Of a stretch of DNA of 24,819 bases, positions 15,798-24,798 are shown in pieces. Numbering within the stretch: position 1 is the first letter of the stretch; each line of letters starts with the position of its first letter. This DNA comes from a virus (taxonomy: Duplodnaviria > Caudoviricetes), in IMG/VR virus record IMGVR_UViG_3300016474_000121, positions 1 to 24,819 of that record; one strand, given 5' to 3'. The position numbers and the translations under genes were made by a program. The notes under the pieces were generated by a model. The model worked only from the letters and a program-made list of their open reading frames with translations. It searched no databases and was not told the origin of the DNA.

Positions 15798-16250
15798 TCA
15801 CTCCTTAATGCCGTGGGCGGCTTCAATGGCTCGGGCGAACGCAATCATTTCACTGTCACTTCGTGGGTTCTCGTCGTACATAGTCACAATGTCCGATGCC
15901 AATAGCGGCTTGCGCTGTGGTGGGGTGGGGTAGAGGGCAATTAGAGCGCGACCTGTGCGGGCCTCGTAATCACCTTTGACCGGCCACACATCGCAACCTT
16001 TGCCCGCCTTCATCGCGCTTTCAAAACCAATCTTGTCGGCGTAGCCTGCTGGCTCCTGCTCTGGCTGTGCCAAGGCTTCTCGGATGGCGGTGATGGTTGC
16101 TCTAGTTTTTGGAAGTGCTTGTGCGGCCCGCCTCTCGCACCACGCAAGGTCATCTCCCGGTTCTCGATCAGCGTCACCAATGTCGGCTAATCCAGCCTCT
16201 GCGTACTCCAACGCCTCCAGCGCCAGCTTCAATGCTTCATCTTTGGTCAT
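15798..16250 (-). CDS. Mosaic-family protein (MTKDEALKLALEALE...FARAIEAAHGIKE)
   Basis: Paralogous linkers shared with 24373-24798 and 15247-15483. Confidence 0.85.
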   Translation of the reverse strand: MTKDEALKLALEALEYAEAGLADIGDADREPGDDLAWCERRAAQALPKTRATITAIREALAQPEQEPAGYADKIGFESAMKAGKGCDVWPVKGDYEARTGRALIALYPTPPQRKPLLASDIVTMYDENPRSDSEMIAFARAIEAAHGIKE

Positions 16251-16276
16251 GCTTGTCCCCTTGCTCGGATGGCGGC
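16207..16276 (-). repeat. 70-bp dispersed inverted repeat (partner at 24347-24416)
   Basis: gccgccatccgagcaaggggacaagcatgacYaaagaYgaagcaYtgaagctggcgctggaggcgttgga; 3 mismatches. Confidence 0.92.
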
Positions 16277-16513
16277 GTCATACAAGCGCAATTCGGCTGC
16301 GGCGTCTTTATGATTACAGCCGTTCTCCAGCCAGTTGATGACGGGCTCCAAATTGGGCCAAGCCTCACGCTCGGCAGCAACTACAAGGGCGGCAAAGCGT
16401 TCAAGCTGAGGAATGTACAAAGGAAGTCCGGTCTCATAGTCATATGGAAGAAATGCCTCCCGCGCCATGCGGATGATGTCATCTCTTTCAATCTTCTTTG
16501 CTTCCGTCTTCAT
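16247..16513 (-). CDS. Mosaic-family protein (RDDIIRMAREA...FAALV.AAEREA...AIRARGQA)
   Basis: Start at MKTEAK overlapping the upstream stop; C-terminus shared with 24116-24376. Confidence 0.8.
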   Translation of the reverse strand: MKTEAKKIERDDIIRMAREAFLPYDYETGLPLYIPQLERFAALVVAAEREAWPNLEPVINWLENGCNHKDAAAELRLYDAAIRARGQA

Positions 16514-17591: not shown

Positions 17592-17619
17592 CTCTCTCTC
17601 CTATAAAAGGTTTTTGGTT

Positions 17620-17845
17620 TATTTCACCCAAAGACCCCCCTACCCCCAGGGAGTCGATGGGATGGTTTCACCGCCTTACGGCATCTGCATGCTCATTGCT
17701 GAGCCCCTCGGCTTGCAGATAAGACCAGCCGCACGGGTTGTTCGGGAACTGCCCCCTAGACCGAAGTCATACCGTGTCGCGGTTTTCTTCCGAGCAGCCC
17801 CACTTGCGGCCCCTACTTTCGTGCGGAGTACGGGAACTGGAACGG
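17620..17845 (-). ncRNA. Candidate tetraloop-rich structured RNA (unassigned)
   Basis: Minus strand GAC-UUCG-GUC (17759-17768), GCUCA-GCAA-UGAGC (17691-17704), GCC-GUAA-GGC (17673-17682), AUCUGCA/UGCAGAU stem (17714-17720 with 17683-17689). Confidence 0.5.
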
Positions 17846-17848
17846 GCA

Positions 17849-17945
17849 AAAAAAATCGCTAAGACAGACCCCGTTTAGAACGGCTGGCTCCTTTCGGATA
17901 CCAACAACCCCTTACGGGGCCGGAGTCTGACTTAGCGACTTTTGT
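17849..17945 (-). ncRNA. c4/CI-like antisense RNA (cloverleaf)
   Basis: Outer stem of ~23 bp (AAAAGUCGCUAAGUCAGACUCCG / CGGGGUCUGUCUUAGCGAUUUUU) enclosing GUAA- and GAAA-capped hairpins. Unpaired CGUUCUAA is complementary to UUAGAACG just upstream (17953-17960). Confidence 0.65.
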
Positions 17946-17976
17946 TTGCTGGCGTTCTAATTCCAACAGTGTTGCC

Positions 17977-18005
17977 ACTGTATCAGATGCGAACGTTCAG
18001 TGCAA
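17977..18005 (-). promoter_or_regulatory. sigma70-type promoter for the c4-like RNA and leftward operon
   Basis: TTGCAC-17 bp (tgaacgttcgcatctga)-TACAGT. Confidence 0.65.
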
Positions 18006-18026
18006 GAATTTTTGTAGGGATTTACC

Positions 18027-18491
18027 CTACCATACTGAGGATATTGACCAGTCGATCTTCTTGGAAACGGCTGGAGCTTTTTTCTTTGGCTGAGGCTTGC
18101 GGCCGGGTGACGTCTCGTTCTTGATCATGTTCTCCAAGCGGATCGCCCTCAAGTATTCCTCGTACTTCTTGGTCCGACGGATCAGTCCATCGATCAACCT
18201 CTCTGCCGAATCCTCACGGCCAGGGTTGTAGTGCAGAAACCACTCACGCAGACTGCTCACCAGGACGACCACACGAGGCTTGCCACCCAGGAATCGGAAC
18301 CTGCCGCGCAAGGGCAGGCGCTTCACTTTGACGCTCTGACCACCTACACCACACCCGAGCATGCAAGAGGCCCAGAAATTTTTGGGGAGGAAGTGAAAGG
18401 TCTTGACGAGGACTGCGGTGTCAACGTACTCGCCGTCCTCTGGCTTGTAGTGGAGCAGTTGACGCTCAAGCATTCTGTTGCTTATTGCCAT
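18027..18491 (-). CDS. Basic hypothetical protein (154 aa)
   Basis: GAGG RBS; lies directly downstream of the repeat array. Confidence 0.7.
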   Translation of the reverse strand: MAISNRMLERQLLHYKPEDGEYVDTAVLVKTFHFLPKNFWASCMLGCGVGGQSVKVKRLPLRGRFRFLGGKPRVVVLVSSLREWFLHYNPGREDSAERLIDGLIRRTKKYEEYLRAIRLENMIKNETSPGRKPQPKKKAPAVSKKIDWSISSVW

Positions 18492-18508
18492 GATCGCCTC
18501 TTGTTATA

Positions 18509-18816
18509 TGTTGGTGGCTCCCATAAGGCAGGGTTGGAGCGCAACTGAGCAAGAAAGCCCCACGGGGCCAATCCGTTTCCACCAACACGGCCTGGGACTC
18601 TGGTTACGTTAATCCAGTTCGGTTGTACTTCCCGACGATTCAATCCCAGTGCGTGTTGGTGTTGGACGGGCGTGGTCTTGGATTTCTGGCTGGCATTGTT
18701 GTCCAGCCCACCAGTAGGTCACGCCCACCAACACGGCTGGGGACTGTACGGCTACTGAACCTTTCGGCTCCCTCGTGACCGCACTCCAAGGTGAACAATC
18801 CCCATGCGTCTTGGTG
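18509..18816 (-). repeat. Array of alternating inverted repeats (CACCAACACG / CGTGTTGGTG) with unique inserts; candidate small-RNA array
   Basis: caccaacacg at 18580 and 18726; cgtgttggtg at 18652; cgtcttggtg at 18807; tgttggtgg at 18509. Confidence 0.8.
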
Positions 18817-18818
18817 CT

Positions 18819-18854
18819 TGTTGTTATCCTTCCTTAGCCGGAAGGATAACAACA
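18819..18854. repeat. Perfect 15-bp inverted repeat with 6-nt spacer
   Basis: TGTTGTTATCCTTCC-ttagcc-GGAAGGATAACAACA. Confidence 0.95.
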
Positions 18855-18871
18855 TCCTCAAAGAATGTCAA
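18843..18871 (-). promoter_or_regulatory. sigma70-type promoter driving the repeat array
   Basis: TTGACA-17 bp-TATCCT with TGn extended -10; AT-rich upstream DNA and GTTTAAAC at 18879. Confidence 0.75.
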
Positions 18872-18980
18872 GCTATGCGTTTAAACATACAAAGCGTTTT
18901 GCGTGTTTGTTTTTTATTGGTAACTTATTTTTCGCGCAGCGTTTATACTTGGCGCACGGATTCCTCATCCGTCTGCTGCA

Positions 18981-19433
18981 TCAAGCAGTTGCCTCTCTCT
19001 TCTTGCCCCGCCCTGTGCGGGGCTTTTCTTTGGGGCATACAGAAGGGATGCACTCCACGACGATCTCTGTGCGGGGGTTCTCAGGGTCAAGCCCCCAGTA
19101 GATGTGCTTCTCCTTCACCTGACGGTCGTTCTCATATATGAGGCCCTGCATCAGGTCCAGGATCAACGACTCATCCAGGTCAGGTCTGCGCGACGCATAG
19201 AAGATGCGCATGATCACCCGCAGGTCTCCCTGCATCAGCGTGGCCAGAGGAGTGCATTGACGTTTAAATGCCTCAGAGTACTTCAGCGCCTTGCTCGACT
19301 TGATCAGCCGACTCATCCCGCCAATACGAACCACCTTGCGGCTGTTGGCCTTGGATGCAGGCTCACCAAAAATAATTTGTGATATTGCTTGCAAACCCTG
19401 TTCGCTTGCACTATCATTTGGGCTCAGACTCAT
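18981..19433 (-). CDS. rusA: RusA-like Holliday junction resolvase
   Basis: GEPASKANSRK, RRPDLD...ILDLMQG.IYENDRQV, NPRTEI; GAGG RBS before ATG 19433. Confidence 0.85.
   Translation of the reverse strand: MSLSPNDSASEQGLQAISQIIFGEPASKANSRKVVRIGGMSRLIKSSKALKYSEAFKRQCTPLATLMQGDLRVIMRIFYASRRPDLDESLILDLMQGLIYENDRQVKEKHIYWGLDPENPRTEIVVECIPSVCPKEKPRTGRGKKREATA
19389..19417 (+). promoter_or_regulatory. sigma70-type promoter for the recombination operon, inside the rusA 5' end
   Basis: TTGCAA-17 bp (accctgttcgcttgcac)-TATCAT, 35 bp upstream of ATG 19453. Confidence 0.65.
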
Positions 19434-19452
19434 AAGCACCTCTGGAGAGAGA

Positions 19453-20325
19453 ATGAAAGTTACGAACGTTCACAACGTGCCGCAGCCCCTTGTAACGCTT
19501 GCTGAGGGCCGATATTACAGCAAGGGCAAGTCAGATTACAGCGTCACAGAGCTTATGTCTCCTCCCCGTGTGCAGCGCCTGCGCTCCCAGAGGGACGAGG
19601 ACATGGAGCAGGATGTATCTCAAATGTTGTGGCCCTTGCTGGGCTCCGCTCTCCACGTAGTCATGGAGAGAGGGGAGACAGAGGGGTGGACATCTGAGGA
19701 GCGCCTCTTCCTGGAGATTGACGGGGTGGTCATCTCTGGTGCGATTGACCTTCAGCAAAACACCCCGGACGGGATCGTCATCGTTGACTACAAGTTCACC
19801 TCTGCGTGGGCTGTGATGAATGACAAGATCGAGTGGGAGCAGCAGCTCAATGTGTACAAGTGGCTGGTCGAGCGAGTCAAGAAGACGCCCGTCAAGGCCT
19901 TGCGCATCTGTGCCCTGATCCGCGATTTCAACCGCCATGACACTGGCCGCGCAGGCTACCCGCAGTCTCCCATTCACATGGTGGAGATTCCCATGTGGGA
20001 CCCGGTCAAGGCTGAGACCTATGTACGTGAGCGCCTGGAGATGCACCGCAACTCCAAGCTGGCAGCAGACTTCGGAGAGCCTCTCCCTGAGTGCTCCCCA
20101 GAAGAGCGGTGGATGTCTGAGACGACATACGCCGTCAAGAGAGAGGGACGCAAGACTGCGATCCGTGTGTTTAAAACCATAGAGGAAGCCACCGAGTTGG
20201 CTCAGAAGGAGAAAGGCTATGTCGAAACACGGCTTGGGGAGCCCAAGAGATGCACCGGCAACTACTGCGGTGTTGCTGAGTGGTGCGATCAGTACCAGGC
20301 AGAACTAAATGACACCGTCGTTTGA
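19453..20325 (+). CDS. Cas4-like / PD-(D/E)XK exonuclease
   Basis: SVTEL, GSALH, ISGAID, IVDYK, QLNVY and C-terminal RC...YC...WC; GGAGAGAGA RBS before ATG 19453. Confidence 0.88.
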   Translation: MKVTNVHNVPQPLVTLAEGRYYSKGKSDYSVTELMSPPRVQRLRSQRDEDMEQDVSQMLWPLLGSALHVVMERGETEGWTSEERLFLEIDGVVISGAIDLQQNTPDGIVIVDYKFTSAWAVMNDKIEWEQQLNVYKWLVERVKKTPVKALRICALIRDFNRHDTGRAGYPQSPIHMVEIPMWDPVKAETYVRERLEMHRNSKLAADFGEPLPECSPEERWMSETTYAVKREGRKTAIRVFKTIEEATELAQKEKGYVETRLGEPKRCTGNYCGVAEWCDQYQAELNDTVV

Positions 20326-24119: not shown

Positions 24120-24376
24120 AGCAATCAGAAGTGCTGGCGATGCTGCACGACATCGTCGCAAACAATCAGGAGTACACCACCTGGACCGTATCCACGCCCC
24201 ATCTGGTCATGCTTGTAAACAAGGCGGTAGAGGCCGAACGTGAGGCCATAGCGCAGATGATTGAAGATGCACCGGCGTTGGTTGAGTATGCAAAGAACGA
24301 CAAAGGCGGCTGTTTGATGTGTGGGTTTACACCAAAAATGGCTGCCGCCGCCATCCGAGCAAGGGGACAAGCATGA
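24116..24376 (+). CDS. Mosaic-family protein (...AEREA...AIRARGQA)
   Basis: GGAG RBS; C-terminus shared with 16247-16513. Confidence 0.8.
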   Translation: MKQSEVLAMLHDIVANNQEYTTWTVSTPHLVMLVNKAVEAEREAIAQMIEDAPALVEYAKNDKGGCLMCGFTPKMAAAAIRARGQA

Positions 24377-24416
24377 CTAAAGACGAAGCACTGAAGCTGG
24401 CGCTGGAGGCGTTGGA
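24347..24416 (+). repeat. 70-bp dispersed inverted repeat (partner at 16207-16276)
   Basis: 67/70 identical by eye; spans a gene junction. Confidence 0.92.
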
Positions 24417-24798
24417 ACTTGAGGACTTGGCTTGTCGATACGAGAAAGACCCTACGCCCGAACATATTGCCAAAGCCATCACCGCCATCAAAGAAGCCTT
24501 GGCAAAGCCAGAGCAGGAGCTTGTGGCGTGGATGTATGAGCAAGCCCGTTTTGGCCCAACCGATTTGCGTGGGCAACAGTGGAAGTTGGCGCTTTCTCGA
24601 CTTAAACCTTGGGCTGGAGACGGACTTGTGCGTAACGTGCGCCCCCTCTACACCACCCCACCACAACGCAAGCCGTGGGTTGGGCTGACGGATGAGGAGC
24701 AAATACAGGTTGCATGGGCTTGCGGAGCAATGTCCGCTGACTGGCTGGAATTTGCCCAAGCCATCGAAGCCAAACTGAAGGAGAAGAACCATGGTTGA
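24373..24798 (+). CDS. Mosaic-family protein (MTKDEALKLALEALE...PLYTTPPQRKP...FAQAIEA)
   Basis: Paralogous linkers with 15798-16250. Confidence 0.85.
   Translation: MTKDEALKLALEALELEDLACRYEKDPTPEHIAKAITAIKEALAKPEQELVAWMYEQARFGPTDLRGQQWKLALSRLKPWAGDGLVRNVRPLYTTPPQRKPWVGLTDEEQIQVAWACGAMSADWLEFAQAIEAKLKEKNHG

Follow-up and report, generated by a model that had tools for sequence, protein, structure and literature searches.

Host RNase III cuts the polycistronic RNA of the phage T7 early region, and that of rRNA operons, at conserved helices, and in this way separates genes or releases rRNA. Small RNAs are also processed from alternating repeats and variable segments in CRISPR and TIGR-Tas systems, and the spacers of TIGR-Tas, which lie between box C/D repeats, are short and of fixed length. 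Among phage RNAs are structured mimics, such as pseudo-ToxI and Racr, that neutralize defence proteins. The attC sites of integrons have an invariant AAC/GTT and extrahelical bases. In the late leader of lambda, RNase III was reportedly found by Daniels in 1988 to cut at +209/+270.

The array reported here is predicted to work like the RNase III-processed leaders of lambdoid phages. In E. coli K-12, rnc-dependent cuts were mapped in Qin at 1641215/1641171 in the essQ leader and at 1649182/1649251 in ydfC-dicF (PMC6212723), and we found that both lie in the layout of the array, in which a long stem with an insert (carrier A) is followed by a second stem-closed module (carrier B) and the 3' cut falls directly before the B-like stem. 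These leaders and the lambda late leader after tR' also share with the array two G-C pairs beside a 2x2 internal loop. The lambda unit (about 44786-44940, after tR') has AUUG/CAGU in the same register and a predicted fragment of 61 nt; LPR2, an RNA of about 63 nt reported near this unit, was compared with it by size and rough place (bioRxiv 10.1101/2024.10.31.621285; PMC12197685). The lambdoid leaders differ in having another handle sequence and in being single units described case by case, whereas the arrays have tandem units, a strict junction grammar and more than 300 exchangeable inserts. Unlike the stems of T7 and rRNA operons, those of the arrays have short interchangeable RNAs between and inside the helices. 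Comparisons with C4 RNA, TIGR, CRISPR, integrons and tRNA, given below, set the array apart from each of them.

The window, by which we mean the whole 24,819-nt stretch of DNA that was analysed (IMG/VR record IMGVR_UViG_3300016474_000121), is a freshwater phage fragment, 42% complete, that encodes a terminase, a portal, a primase/helicase, RusA and a Sak-like annealing protein. The array sits on its minus strand between the RusA-like gene and an ORF of 154 codons (ORF154). It is real and is a member of a large phage family that has no Rfam match.

Organization of the array

The features, in the order of predicted transcription, are as follows.

18981-19439, minus strand: RusA-like resolvase, upstream context
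18843-18871, minus strand: sigma70-like promoter TTGACA-17-TG-TATCCT, a consensus match only, with a predicted start near 18836
18809-18864, unstranded: 25-nt inverted repeat overlapping the -10 box; the same element precedes the array of another locus (L378)
18797-18816, minus strand: 5' arm of carrier A1, with an RNase III cut predicted at 18807/18806
18746-18796, minus strand: insert A1, 51 nt with two hairpins, a singleton among 314 insert families
18733-18745, minus strand: 3' arm of carrier A1, with a cut predicted at 18734/18733
18655-18732, minus strand: module B1, an acceptor-like stem closing a 64-nt singleton insert; three-way shape like that of P1 C4 by eye, with no match to the C4 model
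18642-18661, minus strand: 5' arm of carrier A2, which overlaps B1 at its 3' end, with a cut predicted at 18652/18651
18600-18641, minus strand: insert A2, 42 nt with two hairpins, one of a family of 5 whose first hairpin shows compensatory changes
18587-18599, minus strand: 3' arm of carrier A2, with a cut predicted at 18588/18587
18509-18586, minus strand: module B2, a cloverleaf in which a 3-bp kissing pair joins the D-like and T-like arms, with an acceptor-like stem and a U-rich central arm that varies
18027-18491, minus strand: 154-aa basic protein of a small family, likely co-transcribed, not required by the array

An earlier note on this DNA had described two repeat units (18816-18726 and 18661-18580), each with a 2x2 CA/GC internal loop and compensatory inner stems, and a last half-repeat at 18517-18509; the units, the loops and stems and the half-repeat were all found as described. 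The promoter-like TTGACA-17-TATCCT site that it placed upstream is also present, agrees with the consensus at 10 of 12 positions and has an extended TG. Four inserts had been called unique, which is true inside the window (51, 64, 42 and 63 nt), but two of the four belong to families that occur in other phages. The hairpins proposed for the last insert (GCCCC/GGGGC and GCUCC/GGAGC) gave way to a cloverleaf with a kissing-loop pair, which is the fold supported by 14 relatives. The minus strand of 18500-18835 folds with z = -4.42, and none of 100 shuffles was equally stable. The best 21-nt direct repeat of the array is identical at 19 of 21 positions, against a shuffle maximum of 16 (n=200).

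The 25-nt inverted repeat at the promoter may be an operator or a B-like mini-module, and changes in related contigs lie at 18833-18840, in and beside its loop. In X16, the one run recorded as RNA, contigs lie on both flanking genes and none on 18538-18872, an uncovered stretch being uninformative and RNA ends not being visible in contigs.

A second ORF-poor and strongly folded stretch was noticed at 17600-18020 on the minus strand; it contains a 26-nt inverted repeat (17848-17946), has no Rfam match, and parts of 17620-17833 are common to many other contigs in DNA and RNA runs. Elsewhere in the window, 15906-16280 and 24343-24675 hold inverted duplicates of 32-74 nt, 93-95% identical, within two small paralogous genes on opposite strands.

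Distribution and structure of the family

A strict pattern of the repeats found 35 viral loci, and a looser one an estimated 1,000 or so stretches in IMG/VR and 12 in GTDB genomes, among them contigs of Burkholderiales MAGs and the chromosome of a Polynucleobacter. The hosts of the arrays are probably Betaproteobacteria; one candidate match (L161) is from Nocardia. The parsed set comprises 237 distinct arrays with 311 A units: one unit in 173 arrays, two in 56, three in 6 and four in 2.

Each unit is built on two carriers. Carrier A reads xxCAA(C/G)ACG-CA-UGGGGAUU, insert, AGUCCCCA-GY-CGU, with AAG in place of AAC in 83 of the 311 A units and a G-G at that position in 32 of 119. Carrier B, directly after A, reads GUUGGUG, insert, CACCAAC-A, and resembles a tRNA acceptor. 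Where another unit follows, the next A starts 5 nt past the end of B in 50 of 70 junctions and shares that end in 10 of 70. As a guard against circularity, the repeat searches were redone with the loop free and then with the outer stem free. In the loop-free search CA was recovered in 112 of 113 cases, and CA with GC or GU in 108 of 113; in the outer-stem-free search every base of CGUGUUGG was retained in 113-119 of 120. The stem of B covaries when its end is set by the next unit (94 of 102 pairs, against 82.8 +/- 1.7 in shuffles, none of 5000 of which reached this; 51 of 68 unit pairs were used and 17 of another junction form excluded), and the A after CACCAAC is conserved in 121 of 178 B ends. 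Because the B stem covaries in this way, the 5' strand of B has two partners, the A leader and B's own 3' end. G-U pairs outnumber A-C in the A stems by 334 to 7, a ratio that is biased by the unit finder and the search patterns and was not counted as evidence. The cultured phages Gervaise, CSP3 and PY54 keep the layout with changed letters.

A -10-like hexamer lies 14-24 nt before the first unit in 34 of 73 AAG-type arrays, against 15 in a control interval, and in 31 of 143 AAC-type arrays, against 19. Of 205 arrays, 24 end in a T-run.

In a blastn search of 50,697 GenBank phages the array of the window had no match, and a second query (L030) had one real match, the rest being chance. The Rfam search that had been proposed for the window returned only chance matches. 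Among 86 related loci only tRNA and abiF were above the Rfam cut-offs, with matches to YrlA, int-alpA and tmRNA below them; the first 80 loci searched, with the window, cover 206 of the 314 insert families, and the C4 RNA of P1, as positive control, was recovered at 68.8 bits. No account of the two-carrier grammar or of an exchangeable insert library was found in the literature searched, which included few subscription papers.

Insert families

By blastn, 281 A and 264 B inserts fell into 314 families, of which 217 are singletons and 5 are present in both carriers. Partners are freely mixed, one A insert family preceding 9 different B families in 9 arrays. Insert A2 of the window has four relatives with compensatory changes. 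In the B2 cloverleaf (14 members) 99.3% of cells pair, although relatedness inflates the shuffle test, and the kissing pair 19-69 is AU in 8 of 14 and GC in 6 of 14. Folded by themselves, inserts are only modestly more stable than their shuffles: in samples of 120 from each carrier the median z is -0.72 (A) and -0.48 (B).

The kissing-loop B scaffold (L016 3073-3108; L408, L409, L410) matches 186 GenBank phage records and occurs in 725 of 5,426 E. coli genomes, and none of the rows listed from either set has an RNA annotation; in one locus (L012) it encloses a tRNA-like piece. In E. coli phage Bas80 (L408 1222-1345) a tmRNA-like stretch lies upstream of an A-B unit and gives a weak permuted-tmRNA match of 27.9 bits. 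Resemblances to the hairpin ribozyme and to Ro60/Y-RNA were dropped on inspection.

Module exchange

The earlier note had proposed a comparison of relatives for a fixed loop with varying unit number and insert identity; the loop is fixed, and unit number and insert identity vary at orthologous sites. Public DNA runs of several studies contain about 70% of the words of 17600-19600. One of them (X3) has a contig of 1,359 nt, with 3 differences, in which 18578 is followed directly by 18725; exactly 18579-18724 is missing, which is 146 nt or one period. The same 18578/18725 junction occurs in X9 as a 17-letter loose end. Secondary support comes from a weaker 155-nt skip at the other repeat in X9, the short side of which is 30 letters, and from a joint 18599-18726 in X2 with unknown letters between. 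A contig from X8, which has 5 differences over 18726-19600 (875 nt), switches at 18726 to the kissing-loop insert family. Among pairs of IMG/VR arrays that are alike in both flanks, 8 of 10 differ in their modules, two of them by one whole A-B unit. Crossovers were seen in both repeats, and recombination at the repeats would be the simplest cause of this turnover.

Predicted processing by RNase III

A-stem sites were scored with the count matrix of in vivo E. coli cuts in Table S4 of Altuvia 2018 (PMC6212723), with its double-cut threshold of -25.5 for a helix of about 22 positions. Our scoring was ungapped, and on three training sites it came out more lenient than published by 1-5 units. The two A stems of the window score -22.2 and -23.4, above the threshold, and random threading reaches these scores in 0.015% and 0.56% of cases. 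Across the family 227 of 299 units reach -25.5 and 72 miss it, the 299 being non-independent by descent from one handle. In 205 of the 299 the best register is one whose cuts flank the two pairs next to the loop; the other 94 prefer another on the 8-position core. The register of the 205 also comes out best for Gervaise, CSP3 and lambda, and in PY54 it lies within 0.5 of the top score. Gervaise (-27.3) and lambda (-33.4, with a bulged outer arm) fall below the threshold.

The sequence rules described for RNase III are G-C/C-G between the cuts, A-U/U-A at D/D' and a G eleven nucleotides before the cut (PMC6212723). In the family C-G is found in 116 of 119, A-U in 109 of 119, U-A in 287 of 289 and the G in 274 of 289, some of these positions being fixed by the search patterns. 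The predicted register would account for the conserved C-G pair, for the A-U/U-A at D'/D and for the G that stands in a U-G wobble, eleven bases ahead of the 3' cut, and it sets the first base of B opposite the conserved A that follows CACCAAC. Positions B and C, which are mostly paired in the PMC6212723 matrix, fall on the CA/GY loop here; the mapped essQ site of Qin is likewise mismatched at B. The constant stem, which the earlier note took for a processing or protein-binding handle, fits the sequence rules of RNase III. In K-12, the prophage small-terminase genes nohD and nohA also have RNase III sites in their 5' UTRs (L418, 580765-580800; L419, 1636436-1636401), and arrays likewise often precede small terminases.

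We propose the following sequence of events. A phage promoter would transcribe the array, and carrier A would fold to a helix of about 20 bp using the 5' strand of the next B. The predicted RNase III cuts flank the two C-G/G-C pairs that adjoin the CA/GY loop and would release the A RNA (73 and 64 nt in the window; 44-152 nt predicted across the family). The freed 5' strand of B would then re-pair with the CACCAAC-A end of B, and its new 5' end, being fully paired, would be protected. B1 would be an RNA of 82 nt, and the cloverleaf B2 would head an RNA that runs into the 154-aa gene. At the DNA level whole periods are lost, gained or swapped at the repeats, likely by homologous recombination through phage annealing proteins such as the product of the Sak gene of the window. 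The shape of an insert would make it a decoy or ligand for proteins of the host that bind RNA or act in defence.

Neighbouring genes

The earlier note had taken ORF154 for an orphan; 24 clusters at 50% identity match it. A role as a dedicated partner was not supported by the linkage check, as the family lies beside none of 448 fetched loci, though two homologues follow such a module. P0006, 39% identical to ORF154, starts with a translated A insert and a B2-type module, and P0002 aligns from the 3' end of B; gene callers had run both proteins upstream through the RNA modules, which made the linkage visible. The ORF154 gene thus stands behind such arrays within its own lineage, yet the arrays need no such gene. 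ORF154 itself had no PHROG, Pfam or PDB match and no relatives on viral contigs by pattern scan. Its atlas neighbours at 0.83-0.88 (excisionase, Cox) lie below that tool's own bar and count as leads. Among 110 representatives of 896 neighbour clusters there was no partner family beyond ordinary phage genes and no shared Cas neighbour. In one locus (L032) a gene for an RtcB RNA ligase, at 1353-2540, lies near an array and a tRNA cluster.

Of 121 arrays, 49 have a large terminase in the flanks that were fetched and 21 have a small terminase nearby, encoded on the same strand; an RBS and start come within 60 nt of the last B in 52 of 205 arrays. With the weak folding of inserts alone and the two ORF154 homologues that come after a B-like end, this would suit stems that serve as T7-like RNase III punctuation and stabilize a downstream mRNA, often that of the terminase operon, the inserts being tolerated filler or mere protection of the 5' end. 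A single site would suffice for that purpose, yet 64 of 237 arrays carry 2-4 units; the same insert families turn up in unrelated phages, where compensatory changes and covariation of a kissing pair are seen, and the arrays that end in a T-run also count against punctuation. We regard punctuation as an unlikely but live rival.

Function of the inserts

The earlier note had suggested antisense or guide inserts. On such a reading they would be C4-like, or would be loaded into a protein such as that of ORF154. B1 resembles the three-way shape of P1 C4 by eye, and C4 (RF01695) likewise has an acceptor-like closing stem and a processed precursor; B2 has a variable U-rich arm on a constant scaffold, and lambda LPR2, which is Hfq-bound and lies near 6S RNA, had two RNA partners (bioRxiv 10.1101/2024.10.31.621285). 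The C4 model nevertheless had no matches in the window at E <= 10, and no target sites were found for array inserts: the four inserts of the window had no match above shuffles, in a record 42% complete where 7-nt seeds are below detection, and none of 26 inserts in 10 genomes reached p <= 0.05 against its own genome. Against guides, a Nop domain was absent from all 5 complete genomes and no partner protein is shared. Antisense or guide action is, on this evidence, quite unlikely, though antisense is a live rival too. The earlier note had also set the array apart from TIGR and CRISPR, and this held: besides the missing Nop domain, ORF154 is without a Pfam match and the predicted A RNAs vary widely in length, and insert families recur, with no Rfam CRISPR repeat in the 86 loci and no Cas neighbour in common. 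The inserts differ from the spacers of both systems in being folded modules of 40-150 nt in recurring families.

The acceptor-like appearance of the carriers raises another route to the same RNAs, with RNase P and the tRNA 3'-end enzymes as primary processors that read both carriers as acceptor stems. GUUGGUG/CACCAAC is the acceptor stem of a called tRNA in one locus (L009), A units begin on the CCA of real tRNAs in another (L011), and of 265 B modules 19 carry a T-loop motif and 22 the kissing-loop scaffold. An encoded CCA is missing at most B ends, however, and just 3 of 269 B modules are called as tRNA; the array does not pass as tRNA, whose cloverleaf has consensus D-, anticodon- and T-arms, and the window has no tRNA match. 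Such processing would also leave the fixed outer helix and the fit of the register unexplained. As primary processors these enzymes are very improbable, and they may act second, on tRNA-like B modules. The idea that an integron-type recombinase uses the A stems as attC-like sites of single-stranded DNA is scarcely credible: modules do move as units, and the AAC/GTT outer repeat and box spacing resemble attC, but of 10 genomes one had a tyrosine recombinase (one of the 7 that are >= 90% complete), the 110 neighbour representatives included 1 prophage integrase, and there is no extrahelical base, the inner stem is ungapped, AAG and G-G occur in the units as counted above, and both repeats are crossed over.

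The reading that we favour, and consider probable, is that phages exchange the modules of the row whole at short repeats, and that RNase III would cut the transcript into small RNAs that are likely protein-binding decoys. The polycistronic cassette of constant handle and variable modules envisaged by the earlier note agrees with this, as far as can be judged from sequence: the loop is fixed, modules vary at orthologous sites, and the handle would suit RNase III. If the preceding steps hold, inserts that work by shape as decoys or ligands come a little short of an even chance. Protein decoys are favoured because the shapes recur without complementarity to the phage genomes, are freely exchanged, and an orphan abiF motif follows four arrays. 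This motif (RF03085), above the Rfam cut-off, lies directly after 4 arrays of the fetched set of 237 (L014 2788-2824, L073 73-109, L119 467-503, L165 4251-4286), outside the carriers and followed by U-runs; it doubles as a terminator and is absent from this window. No Abi_2 gene was found in the four records, which are incomplete or of unstated completeness. In C. difficile the abiF motif is part of an RNA that binds and neutralizes AbiF (bioRxiv 10.1101/2025.04.15.648962).

Significance for phage biology

The handle gives a simple rule by which to find and delimit small RNAs of phages that annotation has missed, and it yielded the 314 insert families of the 237 arrays, almost all of them without an Rfam match. 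It also joins the RNase III sites of lambdoid leaders, the dicF operon and possibly lambda LPR2 under one grammar that is testable in E. coli. As a compact means of expression, the carriers could deliver several stable RNAs under a single promoter. Should the inserts be decoys, each would be a bait for the host protein that it blocks. A more far-reaching possibility, which we put forward as doubtful, is that phages keep hundreds of RNA folds, as a plug-and-play library in standard carriers, released by RNase III and traded by recombination, each of which would neutralize a different host defence or RNA-binding protein; the arrays would then be an all-RNA counter-defence island found from lambda to freshwater phages.
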